From: Anaerolineae bacterium
GTDB lineage: Bacteria; Chloroflexota; Anaerolineae; Anaerolineales; UBA4823
Length of the DNA stretch: 64,000 nucleotides
Assembly (NCBI GenBank): GCA_003130835.1
Contig: QEXX01000088.1
Coordinates: forward strand, 16,715 to 80,714
Direction: 5' to 3'
Numbering within the stretch: position 1 is the stretch's first letter; each line of letters starts with the position of its first letter. Positions 1,440 to 35,065 of this stretch are shown in pieces. Position numbers and translations under genes: made by a program. The notes below the pieces were generated by a model. That model saw only the letters and a program-made list of their open reading frames with translations. It had not been told where the DNA came from and ran no database searches.

Positions 1440-2963
1440 ATGAAAACACAAATTCTGCAATTAGAAACACATGATGATTTGATTTCTATCCTCGATAAAA
1501 TCGGCTGGACTCAAACCGAACGAGTCTTACTCGTGCTACCTCGCCGCAGGAGAATCCTCAACCACAAATTGGATCTCCTGCGGTTGAAGCGGCACAGCAG
1601 CCAAAGGGGATGTCAGATTGCGATCGTGACCACTGACTCGTTGGTCAAAACACTAGCAAAGGAAGTAAATATCCCCACTTTCCATTCGATTCAAAAAGCC
1701 AACCAAGTGGACTGGCCGACAAGCTTCGAGCCTAAAGATCGCTTCTCGCCAAACAACGACAACGATTTCAAAAGACAACCCCTCGAAGCTCAAAAAGCAG
1801 CCCTTCAAGCCAGCCGGGCAAATCCATCGACGAATGCTTTACCGCTTTGGGCAAGACTCGCTTGGTTTAGCCTTGCCATTTTAGCCGTGATGAGTATTGT
1901 CGGCGTCCTGGCACCGAGCGCCACGATTCGCATCACACCCCCTGTTCAACAACAAAGCCTCACAATCCCGATTCTCGTCACCCGGCGCGTCCAACAAACG
2001 CGTATCTCCGGTGAACTGCCAATTTCCACACTTAAAGTGACGGTCAGCGGACAAAAGACGCTTAAGACGAGCGGTTCTGTTACGATTCCAAAGGATTTCG
2101 CCGTGGGGGAAGTGATTCTAACCAATCTTACTGACCAGCCTCTCGAAGTCCCTGCTGGCACTCCTGTGCGAACGTTAGACCCCACCCCACGCCGCTATGT
2201 TACTCAGCAAACCGTCCTCCTCACGCCAACTGGGGATGAGAAGAGCGCCACCGTTGCTGTTCAAGCGATCGAGAACGGAGCAAGCTTCAATATACCCCCG
2301 AACGCAATCAAAGCCGTTGAAGGGCTTCTGGGATTAAAAATCAGCGTAACCAACCCGCAACCAATCCAAGGCGGAAGCAACCTCATCGCCTCTGCGCCAA
2401 GTCAGCAAGACCGCCAATTACTTTTCCGACAATTGCAAGCTGAACTACTCGAGAAAGCCAAAGACCAAATCAGAAACGACCTCCCAGAGGGAGCTCTCCT
2501 TCTTCCCGACTCAGCAGTGCAAATTCAGGTACTCCGTCAACAGTACACTCCTGAGGAAATCATTCCGTCCGATAGGCTTTCTTTAGATCTCGAAATCGCA
2601 GTTTCGTTTGGCGTTGTTAACCGCCAATCAATCTTAGATTTAGGTGACCAGATTTTTGCCTCTTCTCTGCCGGTTGGCTATCAGCCTATGCGCGAAACCT
2701 TTATCGCCTATTGTCAAACCCCGCTCACTCCCACAAATAGCGGTGATTACACCTGTAATCTCGAAATCTCCCGAAAAGTGCAACAAACGATTGATGCCGA
2801 AGAAGTTCGGCGTTTGGTAATCAGCAAACCGATAGCCATCGCTTCTCAGAGTTTACAACAATCCTACCACTTGACCGAACCACCCCGCATCGAGATGAAG
2901 CCCAACTGGTTTCCAATCCTACCCTTGTTGCCTATGCGAATTGACATCGTGATAGAAAAATGA
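1440..2963 (+). CDS. Membrane-anchored baseplate J/gp47-like domain protein
   Basis: N-terminal soluble domain, one TM helix (WFSLAILAVMSIVGVLA), then beta-rich region with AVGEVILTN..VPAGT, NIPPNAI and VTNPQPIQGG typical of baseplate-J-like proteins. Overlaps ruvX start (ATGA). Confidence 0.6.
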   Translation: MKTQILQLETHDDLISILDKIGWTQTERVLLVLPRRRRILNHKLDLLRLKRHSSQRGCQIAIVTTDSLVKTLAKEVNIPTFHSIQKANQVDWPTSFEPKDRFSPNNDNDFKRQPLEAQKAALQASRANPSTNALPLWARLAWFSLAILAVMSIVGVLAPSATIRITPPVQQQSLTIPILVTRRVQQTRISGELPISTLKVTVSGQKTLKTSGSVTIPKDFAVGEVILTNLTDQPLEVPAGTPVRTLDPTPRRYVTQQTVLLTPTGDEKSATVAVQAIENGASFNIPPNAIKAVEGLLGLKISVTNPQPIQGGSNLIASAPSQQDRQLLFRQLQAELLEKAKDQIRNDLPEGALLLPDSAVQIQVLRQQYTPEEIIPSDRLSLDLEIAVSFGVVNRQSILDLGDQIFASSLPVGYQPMRETFIAYCQTPLTPTNSGDYTCNLEISRKVQQTIDAEEVRRLVISKPIAIASQSLQQSYHLTEPPRIEMKPNWFPILPLLPMRIDIVIEK

Positions 2964-3379
2964 AAATCCTAGCTATTGACCCTGGTCAACAAAGAATCGG
3001 TGTTGCAATTAGCGATGCAAGCGGTAAAGTAGCTTTTCCATTGACGGTCATCCCGCACCAATCAAAACGGGCGGATGCCGAACGGATTCTTGCACTGGCA
3101 CAAGAGCATCAAGTTGGCCTAATCTTGATCGGCCAAGCCTTGGGTCTCGATCAGCAACCCACCTTACAGAGCCGTCGCTCATTTAATTTAGCTCAAACCT
3201 TACAAGCCCTGACAACCATCCCTGTCCGCTTGTGGGATGAGTTTGAAACCACACAAATTGCGCTGCAAGCCCGACAGGAAATGGGCATAAAAGGGAAAAA
3301 GAAAACCAATCCCATCGACGCATTAGCTGCAGTAGTTCTTTTACAATCCTATCTAGATAACAGTTCAACTTCCGAATGA
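2960..3379 (+). CDS. ruvX: Holliday junction resolvase-like / pre-16S rRNA nuclease YqgF
   Basis: ILAIDPGQQRIGVAISD, WDEFETT and IDALAAVVLLQSYL motifs; classic alaS-ruvX-mltG context. Confidence 0.93.
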   Translation: MKILAIDPGQQRIGVAISDASGKVAFPLTVIPHQSKRADAERILALAQEHQVGLILIGQALGLDQQPTLQSRRSFNLAQTLQALTTIPVRLWDEFETTQIALQARQEMGIKGKKKTNPIDALAAVVLLQSYLDNSSTSE

Positions 3380-4524
3380 TGACTTCATCCAAACGCTTTC
3401 TTCCATGCTTCATCCTTGTTGTCGTGATTCTCTTGTGTGTTTTTACGGTCAGTCTTATGACCTACAGCCTGTTTTTTATTCAGAGAGAAGTTGAGCAAAC
3501 TTTCGGAAAAGCTCCTGCGCATCTCGATCCTCCACAGAAACTTCGGTTTCAAGTTTTGCTCTATGTCCATCGCAAAACCCTATTAACTCCGCTCAACCCC
3601 AACGCCCCCTTACAATCTTTCACCATTTCCCCGAATGAACCAACCCAGCGCATCCTACAGCGATTAGCCGAAGAAGGCATAATTTCAGACCCGCAAGCAT
3701 TGCAAATCTTCATGCAATACCAGAATTACGACACCCAAATCCAAAGCGGGGAACATCTCTTGAGCCCCGCAATGAGTCCGCAGCAAATTGCCCAAGCTCT
3801 TATCGATCCAGCTAACCTGCTGATTCAGTTTAACCTATTGGCTGGATGGAGAAATGAAGAAGTCGCAGCAGCGCTGGCAGCCTCTGGCCTCAGTTTCTCC
3901 GCCCAAGCGTTCTTAGACGCAGCCGATCAACCCCTTGAGCTTTTCCTTCCACAACGAATATCCACAGCATCGATTCGCAATCTACAAGGTTTCTTAATGC
4001 CGGCCACATACCGGCTCTTAAAGAATGCGTCCCCAGAGGAATTGCTCAGTCTATTTACCCAAAACTTTAACACTCAGGTTACAACGGAGCTTGAGCACAA
4101 GTTCCAAGAACAAGGATTATCGCTCTATGAAGGCATCATCCTTGCCTCAATTGTCCAACGGGAAAGCATGCTTGAAGAAGAAATGCCCCTTATCGCCTCG
4201 GTATTTCTCAATCGGCTGCGCGCCCAAATGAAGCTAGATTCGGACGCCACGGTTCAGTACGCTCTAGGATACAACGAAGCCCAAAAAACCTGGTGGACCA
4301 ATCCTCTGAGTACAGCCGATTTTTCAATTGACTCGCCCTATAATACCTACCGATATGCTGGCTTACCCCCTACGCCAATCTGCAATCCCGGTTTGACCGC
4401 TATCCGCGCAGTTGCTGAAGCGCCGCAGACAGATTATTTTTACTTCCGCGCCGCTTGTGACGGTAGTGGCCGGCATCTGTTTGCCAATACCTACGCCGAA
4501 CATCTCGAAAATGCTTGTCCTTAA
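3376..4524 (+). CDS. mltG: Endolytic transglycosylase MltG (YceG family)
   Basis: N-terminal TM; LASIVQRE catalytic Glu, VFLNRL, LDSDATVQY and SPYNTYRYAGLPPTPICNPG. Confidence 0.93.
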   Translation: MMTSSKRFLPCFILVVVILLCVFTVSLMTYSLFFIQREVEQTFGKAPAHLDPPQKLRFQVLLYVHRKTLLTPLNPNAPLQSFTISPNEPTQRILQRLAEEGIISDPQALQIFMQYQNYDTQIQSGEHLLSPAMSPQQIAQALIDPANLLIQFNLLAGWRNEEVAAALAASGLSFSAQAFLDAADQPLELFLPQRISTASIRNLQGFLMPATYRLLKNASPEELLSLFTQNFNTQVTTELEHKFQEQGLSLYEGIILASIVQRESMLEEEMPLIASVFLNRLRAQMKLDSDATVQYALGYNEAQKTWWTNPLSTADFSIDSPYNTYRYAGLPPTPICNPGLTAIRAVAEAPQTDYFYFRAACDGSGRHLFANTYAEHLENACP

Positions 4525-29859: not shown

Positions 29860-32688
29860 TTACCAAGTGGGCAAACAAAGTCGAAAGGCGCTTCCAGCTC
29901 CAATCTTGCTCTCTACCTCGATTTGTCCTTGATGAAGTTCAATGATTTCCTTGACGATCGCCAGTCCTAAACCGGTGCCATGAATCTTGGATTGACGCAC
30001 GGAACGCCCGCGATAAAACCGTTCAAAAATATGGGGTAAATCTTCTTCGCTAATGCCAATGCCGCTATCCCGAATTTCTAGGTAAATCCGCTCGCCATTT
30101 TGCCAACTGGTTACTTTTACCCACCCTGTTGGTGTGTATTGGATAGCATTTCCGATCAGGTTTTGAATTGCTCTCGATAGGTAATGGGCTTCCCCCCGTA
30201 CAACGGCAGGAGCTGAAAGATCGGTTATCAACTCCAAGCCAACTTGTTGAGCCGCCGGGGTGTAAGCGGTTATCGCTTGCTCAACCAACAAATTCAAATC
30301 GACCGGTTCGAATTCAATCTTACGCGTTTTTCCTATCGCCAATCGCGAGAGATCCAAAATATCCTCAACCAGGCGGCGCAACAATTGGCTCTGATCTTTT
30401 AGCACCTGAATATATTCCGTCTTCTTATGCTCTGGTGCTATTTCGAGCAACTCAAGATACAGGCCGATATTTGTCGTCGGCGTGCGCAGTTCATGCGATA
30501 CATCCGCAACAAAGATGTCTTTGAGTCGTTCCAATTCTTTCCGATAGGTAATATCCCGCTGGGTAGCGACATAATTAATGAGTTGACCGTTTTGATCGCG
30601 TACAGGAGCAATCGTAAGAAGGATATCGTAGGGTTCACCATTTTTTCGTTGGTGAAGAAGTTCACCACTCCACACATCGCCTTTTAGCAGTGCAGCTTGG
30701 ATCGCTTCAATTGTAGAGACTGGATTATAGAGACCCAGCCAGTCGAAGTAATTCTGATGGATCAGCTCATGTTCTTCGTAGGAGGTTTGCACTTCCATCG
30801 CATGATTGATCAACTCGATCGAACCATTCAAGTCTGTCACCACCACCCCATCCCCCACACTTGCCAAAATCGCTTCCACCCGTTTCTTAGCTTCAAAAAG
30901 TTCCTTTGTCCGTTCTTGAACACGCAGTTCCAATTCGCTGGCATATTGCTGTAATTGATTCAGCAAGTGGATATTTTCAATCACCGGACCGAGGTTTCGG
31001 GAAACCACGCGTAAGATATCCATATCTTCAGCACTAAAGACATCACCCCCATATTTTGGTCCCAAAGCCAGTAATCCTTTGACAGTTTGATGGCTAATAA
31101 TCGGCACCCATAAATGAGCTTGAGCACTACCTAACAATTGAAATTCTTCGGGTGAGAGTTTCGCTTGTGCAAGGGCATGGGCTATGGTTCTTCTCTCTTC
31201 CTCCCCCACTTTCAAAAGGAATTCAAGGCTGCTTCGGGGCAAAACCGTTGTATCCCCTACTTCAGGATTCTCCTGTAAAACTGCGCCTTCTGGAGCAACC
31301 GCTACCACTGAGAAATCGCCATGAATGTCGGTCAAGAAAATACAGGCATCAGCAATGCGTAAGGTTTTGACTAACCGCTTGCTGACCTCCTTAGCTAATG
31401 CATTCAGATCATTGATATGTTCCAATCCAGAGGTGATTTGCAATACCGCTGAGCGGTAATCATACCAGCCTCCATAAAACAAGGTATCCACCAAGCGCTG
31501 AGTGTAGCGTGAAATGGGTAAAACGCTGGTTGCCAGCAATAAGATGATTAAGGTATTGAGGGCAGGATCAAAAAGCAACTGTTTGGGCAGGAATCGATCG
31601 AAAATTGAAAAAATGCCTAAGTAGATGCCCACCAAAGTAAAAAATACAATCAATACTGTCACCCCTCGATTGATGTGCCGTTCGATTTCAATTAATCGAT
31701 AACGGAAGACCGCATATCCGTAAACCAGCGGTAAAGCTGATAAAAAGATAAAGATAACGGGTGTAGCTAGTAAAGTGCGATTGAGCAAGACTTCTGGTAA
31801 TAAATAGGTGGTAATGAGTGGCAAAGCTGCAAGCAATCCCCCCAATAATACGAGGCGAATCTTGGCACGGGCACTACTGCTGGTTGTGTGTTGGTAGTTA
31901 TAGTGAAGCAAAATGACACAGATCAATAAGTTGAAAGCTAAGAACAACCGCGAGAGTGGCATCAGAAATGAGAGCAAAGGATGGTCTTGGAGGTTAGCTG
32001 TTCCCCAGAGTAGATGCATTATTCCCCCCAGAAAACCGATCAAGTACAAAAGCAGTAAAACTCCTCGACGCTGAAATTGTTTTTTCTCTTGAGGAAAATG
32101 TAAGTGAAAATGCACCGAGATCGGGCCGACGATCCACCAGAGAAAATAATACAGATCAAGCACAATCGAGGGTGCCAAACCAGAGGCTTGTCCAGCCGTG
32201 AGCAATAAGCCTGAAGCTAAAAAGAACCAGAAAAACAAACGCGTTGTTGGAGAGCGCGGTGCATAAGCTTCAACTGCCAGCGCCACAAACAAAAATACCG
32301 CAGCCACAAACAAAGGGGTTAACCTTCGAAGCAATTCAGAGGGAGGCGGAGCAGTCAGCACAACAGGCACAACCACCTTTGCCTCCCCCCTTTGCACAAG
32401 GAAATCAACAGTATCCCCAACATGTTTTCCCCCATACCAAGCTGACGCGTCAGACAATGGCTCACCATCGATCTCCAAGAGAATATCCCCTACCTCAAAA
32501 GACGGAGGCCCTTTGCTTACTGCAACTGCAAGAATTTGATGAGAAGCTGATAAGCCTCGGATGCCATCATCTGGGTACTTGCTGACCAGAATGGCCACCC
32601 AGACGATCACACTAAAAGCGAAAAGCCCGACCAAAAAAGGAAAGCTAAGACGAAGTCTAGGGGAGGGCTGAAAGGGGATTGATTGCAT
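29860..32688 (-). CDS. Sensor histidine kinase: TM-PDZ-multi-TM-GAF-PAS-HisKA-HATPase (ComP-like input)
   Basis: PDZ (GDILLEIDGEP, VGDTVDFLVQRG), about 8 further hydrophobic helices, GAF (LWVPI..GLLALG..FSAED), PAS (GVVVTDLNG), H-box SHELRTP, N-box NLIGNAIQY, G boxes DSGIGI and GTGLGL. Confidence 0.92.
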   Translation of the reverse strand: MQSIPFQPSPRLRLSFPFLVGLFAFSVIVWVAILVSKYPDDGIRGLSASHQILAVAVSKGPPSFEVGDILLEIDGEPLSDASAWYGGKHVGDTVDFLVQRGEAKVVVPVVLTAPPPSELLRRLTPLFVAAVFLFVALAVEAYAPRSPTTRLFFWFFLASGLLLTAGQASGLAPSIVLDLYYFLWWIVGPISVHFHLHFPQEKKQFQRRGVLLLLYLIGFLGGIMHLLWGTANLQDHPLLSFLMPLSRLFLAFNLLICVILLHYNYQHTTSSSARAKIRLVLLGGLLAALPLITTYLLPEVLLNRTLLATPVIFIFLSALPLVYGYAVFRYRLIEIERHINRGVTVLIVFFTLVGIYLGIFSIFDRFLPKQLLFDPALNTLIILLLATSVLPISRYTQRLVDTLFYGGWYDYRSAVLQITSGLEHINDLNALAKEVSKRLVKTLRIADACIFLTDIHGDFSVVAVAPEGAVLQENPEVGDTTVLPRSSLEFLLKVGEEERRTIAHALAQAKLSPEEFQLLGSAQAHLWVPIISHQTVKGLLALGPKYGGDVFSAEDMDILRVVSRNLGPVIENIHLLNQLQQYASELELRVQERTKELFEAKKRVEAILASVGDGVVVTDLNGSIELINHAMEVQTSYEEHELIHQNYFDWLGLYNPVSTIEAIQAALLKGDVWSGELLHQRKNGEPYDILLTIAPVRDQNGQLINYVATQRDITYRKELERLKDIFVADVSHELRTPTTNIGLYLELLEIAPEHKKTEYIQVLKDQSQLLRRLVEDILDLSRLAIGKTRKIEFEPVDLNLLVEQAITAYTPAAQQVGLELITDLSAPAVVRGEAHYLSRAIQNLIGNAIQYTPTGWVKVTSWQNGERIYLEIRDSGIGISEEDLPHIFERFYRGRSVRQSKIHGTGLGLAIVKEIIELHQGQIEVESKIGAGSAFRLCLPTW

Positions 32689-32777: not shown

Positions 32778-33782
32778 TTAATTCTCCCCCACCAAGCGAT
32801 TCAGGACACAGATAAGGGTTGCTTGTGCAATTGGTTGCAATCGATTGTTGTGTAAGTGTTTTCGTGCCAACTCAGCTTCCTGAGTCAGCATTGTCATGAT
32901 GTATAAGGCAGCTCCGGTTTGATTGACCCACGCCACATAGCTTTGCCACTCCTCAGGCCGTTCGGCAAGGTTGTCGATTACCCTACGGAAGGCAAGTTTC
33001 TGGTCGTCTGGTAGAACCTCAAGGGTATAAACTGTCGGCAAATTTTTATACCAGTTTAATGAGCGAGACAACGGGCTCTCACCCGCTTGTAGCCGGTGCC
33101 AATCTTCTAAATCGTCCAAAATTTGTAAAATCGACCCCACATGGGAACCAAAGTTCGCTAAATTCTTAACACAGCCTAGATCATCGGTTGCCATCCTCGC
33201 TCCTGCGTAGCAAGCCAAAGAAAAAAACGCACCCGATTTTTTTCGTAACATCTCGAGATAACTGGACAACGAAAATTCTTGGGTGGATAAGTCCTGTTGT
33301 TGTCCCTCGCACATTTCCAACAGTCGCTCTTGAAAGCTCTTCAAGACGCTCGCAACGCGCCTCTTGTCATAATCCTGATCGAGCAATGCCGTCAGAAGGG
33401 CATTTGCGATGAAAAAATAGCTTGAAGCTAGGTTTAACCATTCAGAAAAAGAATAAGGCGTATTGGCTAGGTCAACCCGCTGATCAAAATCTTGAACGCT
33501 ATCCATCAAGTCGGCAGCAAGATAAAACAAGTACCACGCTGCGCTGATCTCAGGCGGGAAATGATCGCTTCCCCCACAAGCTTGATAGGACAAACGGGGA
33601 AAAAGCAAGGTCAAATTACTATTCGAGAAAGATTGAGGACGCGGCGAAAGGCGCGACAAACTTTTCCATATCACCTCCTTAAATGGAGGCGATATGGAAA
33701 AGTTCGCAAAATAAGATTGAATAGTACGAAAAACTAAGTCTAACTCTCGGTTGACAAGCGACTCAAGCTCGTCTATCGCCAT
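32778..33782 (-). CDS. Isoprenyl-diphosphate-synthase-fold protein, ComQ-like peptide prenyltransferase candidate
   Basis: Asp-rich motifs ADLMDSVQD and QILDDLED, GQQQDL, KKSGAF; lacks GKRxRP and post-FARM RRG; start overlaps the upstream peptide gene. Confidence 0.75.
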   Translation of the reverse strand: MAIDELESLVNRELDLVFRTIQSYFANFSISPPFKEVIWKSLSRLSPRPQSFSNSNLTLLFPRLSYQACGGSDHFPPEISAAWYLFYLAADLMDSVQDFDQRVDLANTPYSFSEWLNLASSYFFIANALLTALLDQDYDKRRVASVLKSFQERLLEMCEGQQQDLSTQEFSLSSYLEMLRKKSGAFFSLACYAGARMATDDLGCVKNLANFGSHVGSILQILDDLEDWHRLQAGESPLSRSLNWYKNLPTVYTLEVLPDDQKLAFRRVIDNLAERPEEWQSYVAWVNQTGAALYIMTMLTQEAELARKHLHNNRLQPIAQATLICVLNRLVGEN

Positions 33783-33988
33783 CCGAGATACATTGAAGCC
33801 ACTTCCTGCATTGAGATGAGGTTGCCATCCGCTCGAGTGGATCGTCGCAAGCCATGCGTGAGGAAGGCCTTCTCTTCGTAACTCAGTTGAATCCCTTTCT
33901 CCGCTAAGGCGCCTTCAGGGTCTGTCTGCAGACGCGCAGCAAACTCTGAATCGGTAGAAAGTTGGTAGACGACTTGGGCGAGTGTCAT
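33773..33988 (-). CDS. ComX-like / RiPP precursor peptide (71 aa, penultimate Trp)
   Basis: Strong SD AAGGAGAAAGG; leader-like DSEFAARLQTDPEGALAEKGIQLSYEE; only Trp is in C-terminal YLGWR; 10-bp overlap with the prenyltransferase. Confidence 0.72.
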   Translation of the reverse strand: MTLAQVVYQLSTDSEFAARLQTDPEGALAEKGIQLSYEEKAFLTHGLRRSTRADGNLISMQEVASMYLGWR

Positions 33989-34039
33989 TTTACCTTTCTC
34001 CTTGAATAAAGATATAATATGGTTTGAAATAACAATTTC

Positions 34040-34121
34040 TATTTACCATAAATTGGAGTAAAAGTCAAGTATTTTCCCTAAATATAGGGCAAGAAGCATC
34101 TACAACCCCAATATATTGGGG
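34040..34121 (-). promoter_or_regulatory. Putative precursor promoter with two upstream palindromic operator sites
   Basis: Minus strand TTGACT(34068-34063)-17-TAAATA; palindromes CCCTAAATATAGGG (34076-34089) and CCCCAATATATTGGGG (34106-34121). Confidence 0.55.
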
Positions 34122-34165: not shown

Positions 34166-35065
34166 ATGTCTCTCGAACGAGTTGTAACCATTGACCTCAA
34201 TTTTTTTGGTTTTCCAGGTGCCATTGCCTCTTACCTCGTGCACCTCCCTCATCAAGCCGTCCTGATTGAACCGGGACCCGCAACCACCATTCCCACCCTC
34301 AAGCAGACTTTGGCAGATTTGGACCTTACGCCATCTGACATCCGCGATGTGTTTATTACGCATATTCATCTGGATCACGCCGGAGCAGCGGGGTGGTTGG
34401 CAGAGCAGGGCGCAACCATCCACGTTCATCCCAAAGGTGCCCCGCATCTGATCAATCCAGAAAAATTACTGCAAAGTGCCAGCCGGATCTACGGGGAATT
34501 TATGGATACCCTATGGGGCGAATTCAAGCCGGTGTCCGAGAGCAACATTCACATCCCCCAAGACAACGAGAGGGTATCGATTGATGGCTTTTCTTTTCAA
34601 GTTCTAGACACTCCGGGACATTCCAATCACCATTACTCGATCCTCTTTGAAGGGGTTCTCTTTTCCGGAGATATTGGGGGAATTCGAGTAGGGAACACTC
34701 CTCACATCGAGCTTCCAACTCCACCGCCAGAGTTCAACCCCCAAACGTGGCGGGCTAGCCTTTTGCGCCTGCAGGAATTGGAACTGCGAGCCATTGCGCC
34801 GACCCACTTTGGCATCTATACCGATGTTCAATATCATCTTGACCATCTATTAAGACAATTGGATCAGCTCGAAGAGTGGTTGGAGACTCAAATGTCATCT
34901 AACCCCTCAATTGAGGAACTAAGTGAGGCTTTAGGGCAGTGGCTTAACGCTCAGGGAAGAAGCCAACTGCCCCAATCTTATCAACCGTACTTTACCTACC
35001 TAAACCCAACTTGGATGAGCGCCGCCGGCATTTACCGCTATTGGCATAAAGTCCGTCAAGCCTGA
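34166..35065 (+). CDS. MBL-fold metallo-hydrolase
   Basis: THIHLDHAG (HxHxDH), TPGHSNHH, FSGD, PTHFG; SD AGGAG. Confidence 0.9.
   Translation: MSLERVVTIDLNFFGFPGAIASYLVHLPHQAVLIEPGPATTIPTLKQTLADLDLTPSDIRDVFITHIHLDHAGAAGWLAEQGATIHVHPKGAPHLINPEKLLQSASRIYGEFMDTLWGEFKPVSESNIHIPQDNERVSIDGFSFQVLDTPGHSNHHYSILFEGVLFSGDIGGIRVGNTPHIELPTPPPEFNPQTWRASLLRLQELELRAIAPTHFGIYTDVQYHLDHLLRQLDQLEEWLETQMSSNPSIEELSEALGQWLNAQGRSQLPQSYQPYFTYLNPTWMSAAGIYRYWHKVRQA

Follow-up and report, generated by a model that had tools for sequence, protein, structure and literature searches.

A candidate tryptophan prenyltransferase with a polyprenyl synthase fold, encoded between a small peptide gene and a sensor kinase gene in an Anaerolineae genome

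The window, a 64,000-nucleotide stretch of contig QEXX01000088.1 from an Anaerolineae bacterium, carries three genes in a row on its minus strand, which encode a small peptide (X), an enzyme with the trans-isoprenyl pyrophosphate synthase (trans-IPPS) fold (Q) and a sensor histidine kinase (P). The peptide gene (33773..33988) specifies 71 residues and a stop codon, with a leader like those of the NHLP clan and a variable core that ends in SMYLGWR, and a sequence resembling a ribosome-binding site of the AAGGAG type (AAGGAGAAAGG) stands ahead of its ATG. Its 3' end overlaps the ATG of the enzyme gene (32778..33782, 334 residues) by 10 nt within the string GGATGGCGATAG, with the start codon overlapping the Gly-Trp codons of the peptide. 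The kinase gene (29860..32688, 942 residues, assigned from Pfam domains and hydropathy) begins 89 nt downstream of the enzyme gene. Considering its motifs and the analogy to described systems, we regard the enzyme as a likely prenyltransferase of the kind called 'trans-IDS-like' (IDS, isoprenyl diphosphate synthase), comparable to ComQ, StheQ and PalQ, that acts on the Trp of the peptide encoded upstream.

The sequence-only reading of this DNA had described a polyprenyl-synthase-fold enzyme with the motifs DLMDSVQD, DDLED, GQxxDL and KSG, and all four are present in the 334-residue open reading frame (ORF) at exactly 32778-33782 on the minus strand. DLMDSVQD (residues 91-98) belongs to a first Asp-rich region, D91-L-M-D94-S-V-Q-D98-F-D100 (33483..33512, minus strand), which is predicted to form the site for Mg2+ and the allylic diphosphate. 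From the sequence, this region would best be read as D94-S-x-x-D98 flanked by D91 and D100, giving D-x-x-D-x-x-x-D-x-D. Further along the same strand, GQQQDL (residues 160-165, 33288..33305) aligns with the canonical GQ/GE..D.L, and K182-S-G (residues 182-184, 33231..33239), whose family-invariant Lys is predicted to bind diphosphate, aligns with the canonical KTA. The second motif, Q220-I-L-D223-D224-L-E-D227 (33102..33125, minus strand), contains DDLED as residues 223-227, that is, a full DDxxD (D223-D-L-E-D227), and is predicted to position the indole and the diphosphate.

GKRxRP is the basic motif with which chain-elongating trans-prenyl diphosphate synthases bind the diphosphate of isopentenyl diphosphate (IPP), as described in the literature on farnesyl diphosphate synthases. 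To see what stands in its place here, we used a motif alignment of the enzyme, 14 relatives and the two canonical polyprenyl synthases of its own genome. Where the canonical proteins carry GGKRIRP or TGKRIRP, the enzyme has S-N-L-T-gap-L, with no basic residue, and opposite the canonical HDDxxD....RRG it has M-D94-S95-V-Q-D98-F-D-Q-R-V-D. The earlier claim that both GKRxRP and RRG are absent is thus upheld by comparison with the enzyme's own paralogues. The alignment could have shown the basic motifs in shifted form, but the only such residue is a lone R102, which lies one column off RRG and is not conserved in the relatives. A string search also found no RRG within residues 61-140 in 185/186 family or hit proteins. 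On the donor side, D94, D98, K182, Q220, D223 and D224 are invariant in the alignment with relatives and canonical paralogues. When 34 family members, 28-66% identical to the window protein, are aligned, the same six residues are invariant together with G160 and Q161, and D164 is nearly so. As both the loss of the IPP-side motifs and the retention of these residues are seen across the family, they represent a family trait and no accident of one sequence. ND occurs at the second motif in 12/186 proteins, counted by regular expression.

Automated annotation would make the enzyme an ordinary chain-elongating polyprenyl diphosphate synthase, and several observations agree with that: PF00348 (polyprenyl_synt) matches at 55 bits, above its cut-off of 27, the second motif is a complete DDxxD, and the AlphaFold2 model (mean predicted local distance difference test score, pLDDT, 90.6) matches the geranylgeranyl diphosphate synthase (GGPPS) 1wy0 in Foldseek with a template-modelling (TM) score of 0.80. 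The same Foldseek search places the indole prenyltransferase Ord1 at rank 9 with a TM score of 0.73; because the model resembles GGPPS and Ord1 alike, the fold by itself cannot discriminate between them. A look-up in the ESM Atlas with the enzyme gave 'polyprenyl synthetase' clusters only, and its named relatives are annotated as 'polyprenyl synthetase family protein' or 'geranylgeranyl pyrophosphate synthase', which is the mislabelling that the sequence-only reading had anticipated. However, the PF00348 match extends over profile positions 92-191 of 251 only, and GKRxRP and RRG are missing from a protein whose first motif is DSxxD. Fourteen NCBIfam synthase models match the enzyme, none of them near its curated cut-off (best 62.9 bits vs 450). 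Moreover, the genome, which is 94% complete, has three PF00348 matches, at 224.6, 198.6 and 54.9 bits, the last being this ORF, and the two strong paralogues (L006 and L007) are already canonical, with GGKRIRP/TGKRIRP, HDDxxD....RRG, KTA and DDxxD. Canonical enzymes also lie across a branch with support of 100 in a 30-row tree (described below). Taking these together, we consider a chain-elongating synthase highly improbable. The lost second Asp of the first motif and the lost basic motifs could instead mark a paralogue that has lost catalysis and serves in regulation or as a scaffold, comparable to the non-catalytic small subunits found in heteromeric prenyl synthases. This is hardly credible for a protein whose model is confident and well folded and in which D94, D98, K182, Q220, D223 and D224 have stayed invariant among relatives of such low identity.

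The peptide falls into two parts, a leader (residues 1-44, 33857..33988, minus strand) and a core (residues 45-71, 33776..33856, minus strand) with a predicted acceptor, Trp70, whose codon is 33779-33781. We aligned the window's peptide with 25 chosen from 40 related peptides, leaving out 15 with long, repeated or divergent tails. In these 26 rows, residues 1-44 form a conserved block with the consensus MxLAQVVYxxSTDxxFAxxxxxDPExALxxxGxxLSxEExAFL, the remainder is variable, and W70 is the sole invariant core residue. In the window's peptide, a Gly precedes it (G69-W70) and an Arg follows. Considering all 40 related peptides, a Trp is among the last 5 residues in 33, the other 7 have theirs in internal, mostly repeated, motifs, and each of the 40 has at least one core Trp. 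Loci without an overlap between the two genes keep the Trp as well, and its conservation is thus no by-product of the overlap. Two further models of NHLP-type leaders, TIGR04509 and TIGR03793, match the peptide weakly.

Some related precursors carry more than one core. At L046:3096-3590 (plus strand), one leader is followed by five near-identical repeats that end in AAW(R/H)A, and precursors with 2-3 repeated Trp motifs (RTWFE, HTWYES, IPWY, KPMFNWY) are encoded at L050:3654-3986, L052:3696-3986, L041:2028-2285 and L031:162-485. Multi-core precursors of this sort imply that each core is cut out at both of its ends, as happens with cyanobactin precursors. At L021, two tandem near-identical precursor genes (2361-2576 and 2606-2821, plus strand) stand ahead of a single enzyme gene.

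We then considered how far the three genes travel together. A protein search gave 42 homologues of the enzyme at E <= 0.001, and 455 cluster representatives (50% identity) match at E <= 1e-30. With these homologues, the PF00348 match and the confident model, the ORF can be taken as a real gene. A pattern scan with the family alignment, covering one genome per prokaryote species, gave 44 loci, of which 43 are from Chloroflexota, mostly Anaerolineales/Anaerolineae, and one is from an 'uncultured bacterium'. The family is patchy: among the matches listed, 8/401 high-quality Chloroflexota genomes, the window's own included, have one of at least 175 bits. Scanning the 44 loci with a hidden Markov model (HMM) of the peptide, built from the obvious upstream neighbours, identified a homologous peptide ORF immediately upstream of the enzyme in 40/44 loci, or 40/41 of those with room for one. 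In three loci (L003, L043 and L044) the enzyme is at a contig edge, which leaves L048 as the one real miss. A homologue of the sensor part of the kinase (residues 1-420) is directly downstream of the enzyme in 38/44 loci. Sensor homologues also adjoin enzyme paralogues in 5/5 other genomes checked, and in genomes with multiple paralogues (e.g., G270 and G285) each enzyme has a sensor-kinase paralogue of its own next to it. For contrast, 401 high-completeness Chloroflexota genomes were searched and the best 30 loci taken, with flanks of 1.5 kb: the sensor adjoins 10/12 enzymes outside the canonical clade vs 0/18 inside it.

Natural fusions point in the same direction. Five of the 186 proteins (406-436 residues: P0115, P0122, P0150, P0159 and P0161) join a leader-like N-terminus to the enzyme through a linker that contains Trp, and the locus L057:1213-2502 (plus strand) encodes a further leader-linker-enzyme fusion. 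These link peptide and enzyme in Rosetta-stone fashion, and may be self-modifying or leader-activated enzymes. The contrast with canonical synthases (0/18), the paralogous cassettes and the fusions together support a real functional link between the genes. Further, with the IPP-side motifs lost, the donor-side residues invariant and a translationally coupled, Trp-bearing peptide upstream, a non-IPP acceptor, namely the indole of the peptide, is supported. This is in line with the earlier proposal that the enzyme keeps its allylic-diphosphate/Mg site and would accept, most plausibly, the neighbouring indole, for which the conservation and the coupled peptide with its invariant Trp both speak.

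Prenylation of indole by this fold is not confined to peptides, and so a small-molecule indole or Trp prenyltransferase like Ord1, or some other non-elongating terpene enzyme for which the peptide is no substrate, also has to be weighed. Ord1, from Streptomyces, is reported to be an all-alpha-helical indole farnesyltransferase in which Q216 and D219 act on the indole N-H (PMC12510300). Among solved structures, it (PDB 9v4g) gives the enzyme's best match by sequence (E 9.6e-11), with GGPPS 1wy0 behind it, and its structures (PDB 9v4g/9v4j) share with our enzyme a second motif of the form Q-x-x-D-D with equal spacing (Q216/D219/D220). Ord1 differs in its DDxxD first motif and, as far as its published description goes, in using free indole as substrate and in lacking a peptide or kinase partner. 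At our locus, by contrast, the peptide gene is coupled to the enzyme gene, a Trp-bearing peptide accompanies nearly every relative with room for it, leader-enzyme fusions exist and a scan within ~10 kb showed no further secondary-metabolite genes near the cassette. We therefore consider a small-molecule substrate improbable, and a peptide substrate remains the preferred reading.

To our knowledge, prenylated-Trp peptide signals were long considered peculiar to Bacillus. PalQ (2023) and StheQ (preprint, 2026) have widened the range of such systems. The enzyme class proposed by the sequence-only reading exists, with ComQ, PalQ and StheQ reported as experimentally proven (PMC10853753; bioRxiv 10.64898/2026.08.29.745113), and the class and its cassette logic are already in print as ComQXPA, PalPXQ and StheQX. 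A literature search for ComQ in Anaerolinea gave nothing relevant, and one for comQXPA in Chloroflexi led to the StheQ preprint and one survey, which states that chloroflexi hold a histidine kinase-response regulator (HK-RR) pair. The canonical synthases (GGPPS 1wy0 and the own-genome paralogues) share with our enzyme the fold, GQxxD, K(T/S)(A/G) and a DDxxD second motif, but differ in having GKRxRP, a DDxxD first motif and RRG, and none of the 18 has an adjacent peptide or kinase sensor.

The system of Bacillus subtilis, ComQ/ComX/ComP/ComA, was compared by its published description. It is likewise described as an IPPS-fold enzyme, a small neighbouring precursor prenylated on a Trp near its C-terminus and a polytopic membrane histidine kinase by which the product is sensed. 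Our enzyme keeps the first and fifth Asp (D94 and D98) of the ComQ-type first motif, but the pseudo-second-aspartate-rich motif (pseudo-SARM) of ComQ reads NDxxx/GDxxx, which DDLED does not match. As described, ComX also lacks an NHLP-like leader, and the gene order is Q-X-P-A including a response regulator, of which none is adjacent in the window.

PalQ, from Paenibacillus alvei, is reported to prenylate PalX, an NHLP-type precursor, at C3 of its C-terminal Trp, in a reaction enhanced by the NHLP domain; the PalQ cluster includes a histidine kinase, and Q197 of PalQ, next to a D200...D204 motif, has been suggested to hold the N-H of the indole (PMC10853753). A review places ComQ, PalQ and the ChrPC P domain together as 'trans-IDS-like' prenyltransferases, all with a Gln ahead of the second motif, and reports that a Gly ahead of the acceptor Trp improves recognition by PalQ (PMC13290415). 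We retrieved the PalQ locus (L054) with a degenerate pattern for the published core peptide. The three-part composition is common to PalQ/PalX/PalP and the window, namely an NHLP-type precursor, a Trp prenyltransferase of the IPPS superfamily and a histidine kinase. The conserved Gln before D-D-x-x-D-W is also shared (PalQ Q197/D200/D201/D204; window Q220/D223/D224/D227), as is a Trp at the C-terminal end of the precursor, with the Gly favoured by PalQ present here as G69. In contrast, PalQ needs Trp as the very last residue, whereas Trp70 is second from the end with Arg behind it, and at the PalQ locus Q precedes X, and the kinase gene, whose product has an unrelated sensor, is convergent. 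The family profile matches PalQ remotely (hhalign probability 12%, E 0.0024, 83 columns, centred on the Lys and Q-x-x-D-D-x-x-D-W), and the leader profile matches the PalX leader weakly (E 1.5e-4). No Pfam family matches PalQ. PalP was considered as a relative of the window kinase's sensor and rejected (BLASTP E 0.2).

StheQ comes from Sphaerobacter thermophilus, also of the Chloroflexota. According to its preprint (bioRxiv 10.64898/2026.08.29.745113), StheQ holds a single Mg2+ on D85/D89, K174 and Q212 are at the pyrophosphate, the pseudo-SARM residues N215/D216/D219 are needed, and N215D loses 98% of activity. Docking of the leader on the surface of helices 6-9 has been proposed for StheQ. 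StheQ was not among our 186 family/hit proteins, where the best agreement with the preprint's residue numbers was 6/13 positions. However, genome G213 contains a StheQ-like locus, with a 69-residue peptide that ends in PIGTLGWWA and a 300-residue enzyme, in which I62, G63, T64, G66 and W68 of the peptide and D82, D85, E86, D89 and D91 of the enzyme fit all StheX/StheQ positions given there. In G213 (L085, minus strand), the peptide gene (3156-3365) lies upstream of the enzyme gene (2215-3117), separated from it by 38 bp, and the enzyme is followed by a large histidine kinase whose sensor is homologous (E 2.3e-14). The preprint's text instead places the StheX ORF 'downstream', and the available part of its main text makes no mention of a kinase.

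The family profile aligns with the StheQ-like enzyme at an hhalign probability of 99.4% (E 8.3e-22, 213 columns), compared to E 2.5e-11 for one of the own-genome canonical synthases. The alignment pairs window and StheQ-like residues as D91/D82, D94/D85, S95/E86, D98/D89, D100/D91 and K182/K174, and in the second motif as Q220/Q212, D223/N215, D224/D216 and D227/D219. Both enzymes have the all-alpha trans-IPPS fold, a first region of the form D-x-x-D-x-x-x-D-x-D and near-identical spacing of the Lys (K182 vs K174) and Gln (Q220 vs Q212). The precursors, 69-71 residues long, both begin with an NHLP-like leader and carry the acceptor Trp as their penultimate residue, and in both loci the order is peptide, enzyme and kinase with a homologous sensor; the leader profiles match weakly (E 9.5e-5). 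The differences are a second motif of NDAQD vs DDLED here, DE vs DS in the first motif, identity of only ~25% over the 213 aligned columns, and the class, which for the window is Anaerolineae. In a quick tree of 30 rows, 21 window-family or sensor-adjacent enzymes, the StheQ-like one included, split from 9 canonical enzymes with a Shimodaira-Hasegawa-like approximate likelihood-ratio test (SH-aLRT) support of 100. That tree left out PalQ and L006 (long branches), 24/34 family rows, and the ambiguous or redundant L057, L061, L064, L068, L070, L073-L076, L079, L080 and L083; its labels were assigned by motif regular expressions for 'canonical' and by neighbourhood for 'HK-linked'.

With these systems as a guide, the following mechanism can be proposed. 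An allylic prenyl diphosphate, probably C10-C20, would be bound through Mg2+ on D94/D98, with K182 and Q220 at the diphosphate. The NHLP-like leader (residues 1-44) would dock the precursor on the enzyme, and the flexible C-terminal tail of the 71-residue precursor would take the place of IPP, bringing Trp70 near Q220/D223. Ionisation of the donor would give an allylic cation to be attacked by the indole of Trp70, by analogy at C3, followed by closure to a pyrroloindoline. Removal of the leader and export would release a lipopeptide to be sensed by the downstream kinase, and the three genes would thus form an X-Q-P signalling cassette. Whereas the sequence anatomy, the conservation across the family, the linkage of the genes and the homology are observed, the reaction, the length of the donor, the processing and the part in signalling are inferred by analogy.

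The kinase consists, in order, of a first transmembrane segment, a PDZ-like extracytoplasmic domain, ~8-10 hydrophobic transmembrane segments, and GAF, PAS, HisKA and HATPase domains. The extracytoplasmic stretch (residues ~38-112, 32353..32577, minus strand) matches Pfam PDZ_2 weakly (E 0.013), is conserved and is modelled by AlphaFold2 as a small beta domain between two transmembrane helices (pLDDT 90.4). Its best Foldseek matches are the PDZ domains of DegS, DegP/HtrA and CtpB, which bind C-termini (best E 1.2e-4). DegS, for one, recognises outer-membrane proteins by their C-terminal YxF. The modelled PDZ-like fold suggests, as a hypothesis, that the sensor might recognise the free C-terminus of the pheromone, with the prenyl group placed among the transmembrane helices. 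Overall, the balance tips slightly towards the prenylated peptide being the signal for the adjacent kinase.

Several observations weigh against a prenylated-peptide cassette of this kind. First, DDLED breaks the rule derived for ComQ, which is reported to need NDxxx/GDxxx, with DDxx(D) called 'unsuitable' for Trp prenylation (PMC5331326), and in StheQ the corresponding change is the N215D that abolishes nearly all activity. PalQ (D200-D201-x-x-D204) and Ord1 (D219-D220) are nevertheless active with Asp, so Asp at this position is compatible with indole prenylation. Second, the StheQ-like enzyme scores 110 bits against the family profile, within the range of canonical enzymes (100-140) and so no closer to the family than they are. 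Third, in a 67-row quick tree the neighbour of the StheQ-like group is the canonical clade (support 93, not starred) and not the window family, such that the two quick trees disagree on the placement of this group. Fourth, NF038399 (Os1348 family, NHLP clan) reaches 38.8 bits on residues 3-44 of the peptide, slightly short of its cut-off of 40. Fifth, the wider neighbourhood is also syntenic in Anaerolineales, with a metallo-beta-lactamase (MBL) gene within 4 kb in 20/44 loci and an oxoacid:ferredoxin oxidoreductase beta-subunit (OFOR-beta) gene in 14/44. Retention of these genes makes conserved gene order on its own a weak argument, and the case for linkage is drawn from the canonical synthases, which have no sensor beside them (0/18), and from the paralogous cassettes. 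Finally, among ORFs of at least 120 residues scanned ~10 kb to each side, there was no protease, exporter or response regulator.

The last point also favours another explanation, in which the chemistry is as proposed but the product is an antimicrobial or membrane-active peptide that is made on the ribosome and modified after translation (RiPP), or a membrane-anchored factor, and the kinase regulates or senses something else. The GAF and PAS domains of the kinase are cytoplasmic and could take other inputs, prenylation is reported to raise the antimicrobial potency of peptides in the PalQ work (PMC13290415), and the StheQ preprint states that the biological role of StheX is unknown. Against this, the sensor domain accompanies the enzyme in most loci (38/44) and stands beside separate paralogues within single genomes, while it is found beside none of the 18 canonical synthases, and the three-part logic is common to ComQXP and PalPXQ. 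We therefore consider a RiPP or anchored factor unlikely, though far from negligible, and retain a signalling role for the peptide as the favoured interpretation.

A response regulator was noticed beside only one of these cassettes. In a distant relative (L037), a 127-residue response-regulator receiver ORF (3233-3616, plus strand) lies directly upstream of the peptide gene.

Some features of the locus and its relatives appear to be variants on the published systems: the combination of DSxxD and DDxxD motifs, the PDZ-like sensor, and the multi-core and fused precursors of relatives. The DSxxD first motif and the PDZ-like kinase domain set the window cassette apart from the ComQ, PalQ and StheQ systems, and the full DDxxD second motif distinguishes it from the NDxxx of ComQ and StheQ. 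It is possible, though doubtful in all its parts together, that the cassette is one copy of a widespread lipopeptide-pheromone system found, in our scans, almost only in Chloroflexota. In such a system, the PDZ-like domain would read ...G-W(prenyl)-R-COOH in the way DegS reads its ligands, with the prenyl group among the transmembrane helices, and a complete DDxxD would be compatible with peptide Trp prenylation. It would further include paralogous 'pherotype' cassettes, multi-core precursors (up to 5 repeats, AAWRA) and fusions.

Uncultured Anaerolineae are abundant in sediments, digesters and hot springs. The locus and its relatives make up a large mis-annotated family, whose 44 loci from the genome scan lie mainly in these organisms. 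If the proposed function is true, it would open a way into cell-cell signalling in a phylum for which hardly any genetics exists, and would correct 'polyprenyl/GGPP synthase' annotations (GGPP, geranylgeranyl diphosphate) that distort reconstructions of isoprenoid pathways. It would also supply new motif rules (DSxxD plus DDxxD, Trp second from the end) for the late-stage peptide lipidation toolkit.

As for transcription, a consensus scan found a sigma-70-like promoter match upstream of the peptide gene (34014..34041, minus strand, TAGAAA-16-TATTAT), although such matches are weak evidence, with 2 in the region vs a mean of 6.5 in shuffles. The same scan found no terminator-like site from the peptide gene through the enzyme gene to the kinase start; the only two minus-strand matches fall within the kinase gene (32131-32113) and at that gene's 3' end (29880-29854). 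The remaining genes within ~10 kb are housekeeping genes. An MBL-fold hydrolase gene (34166-35065, plus strand) is divergent from the peptide gene, 177 bp apart. On the other side, a gene for a phosphoenolpyruvate (PEP) synthase/pyruvate, phosphate dikinase (PPDK) regulatory kinase-pyrophosphorylase (PF03618, 29019-29843, minus strand) starts 16 bp past the kinase stop and may be co-transcribed, and its position is kept in the 5 loci whose flank reached so far.

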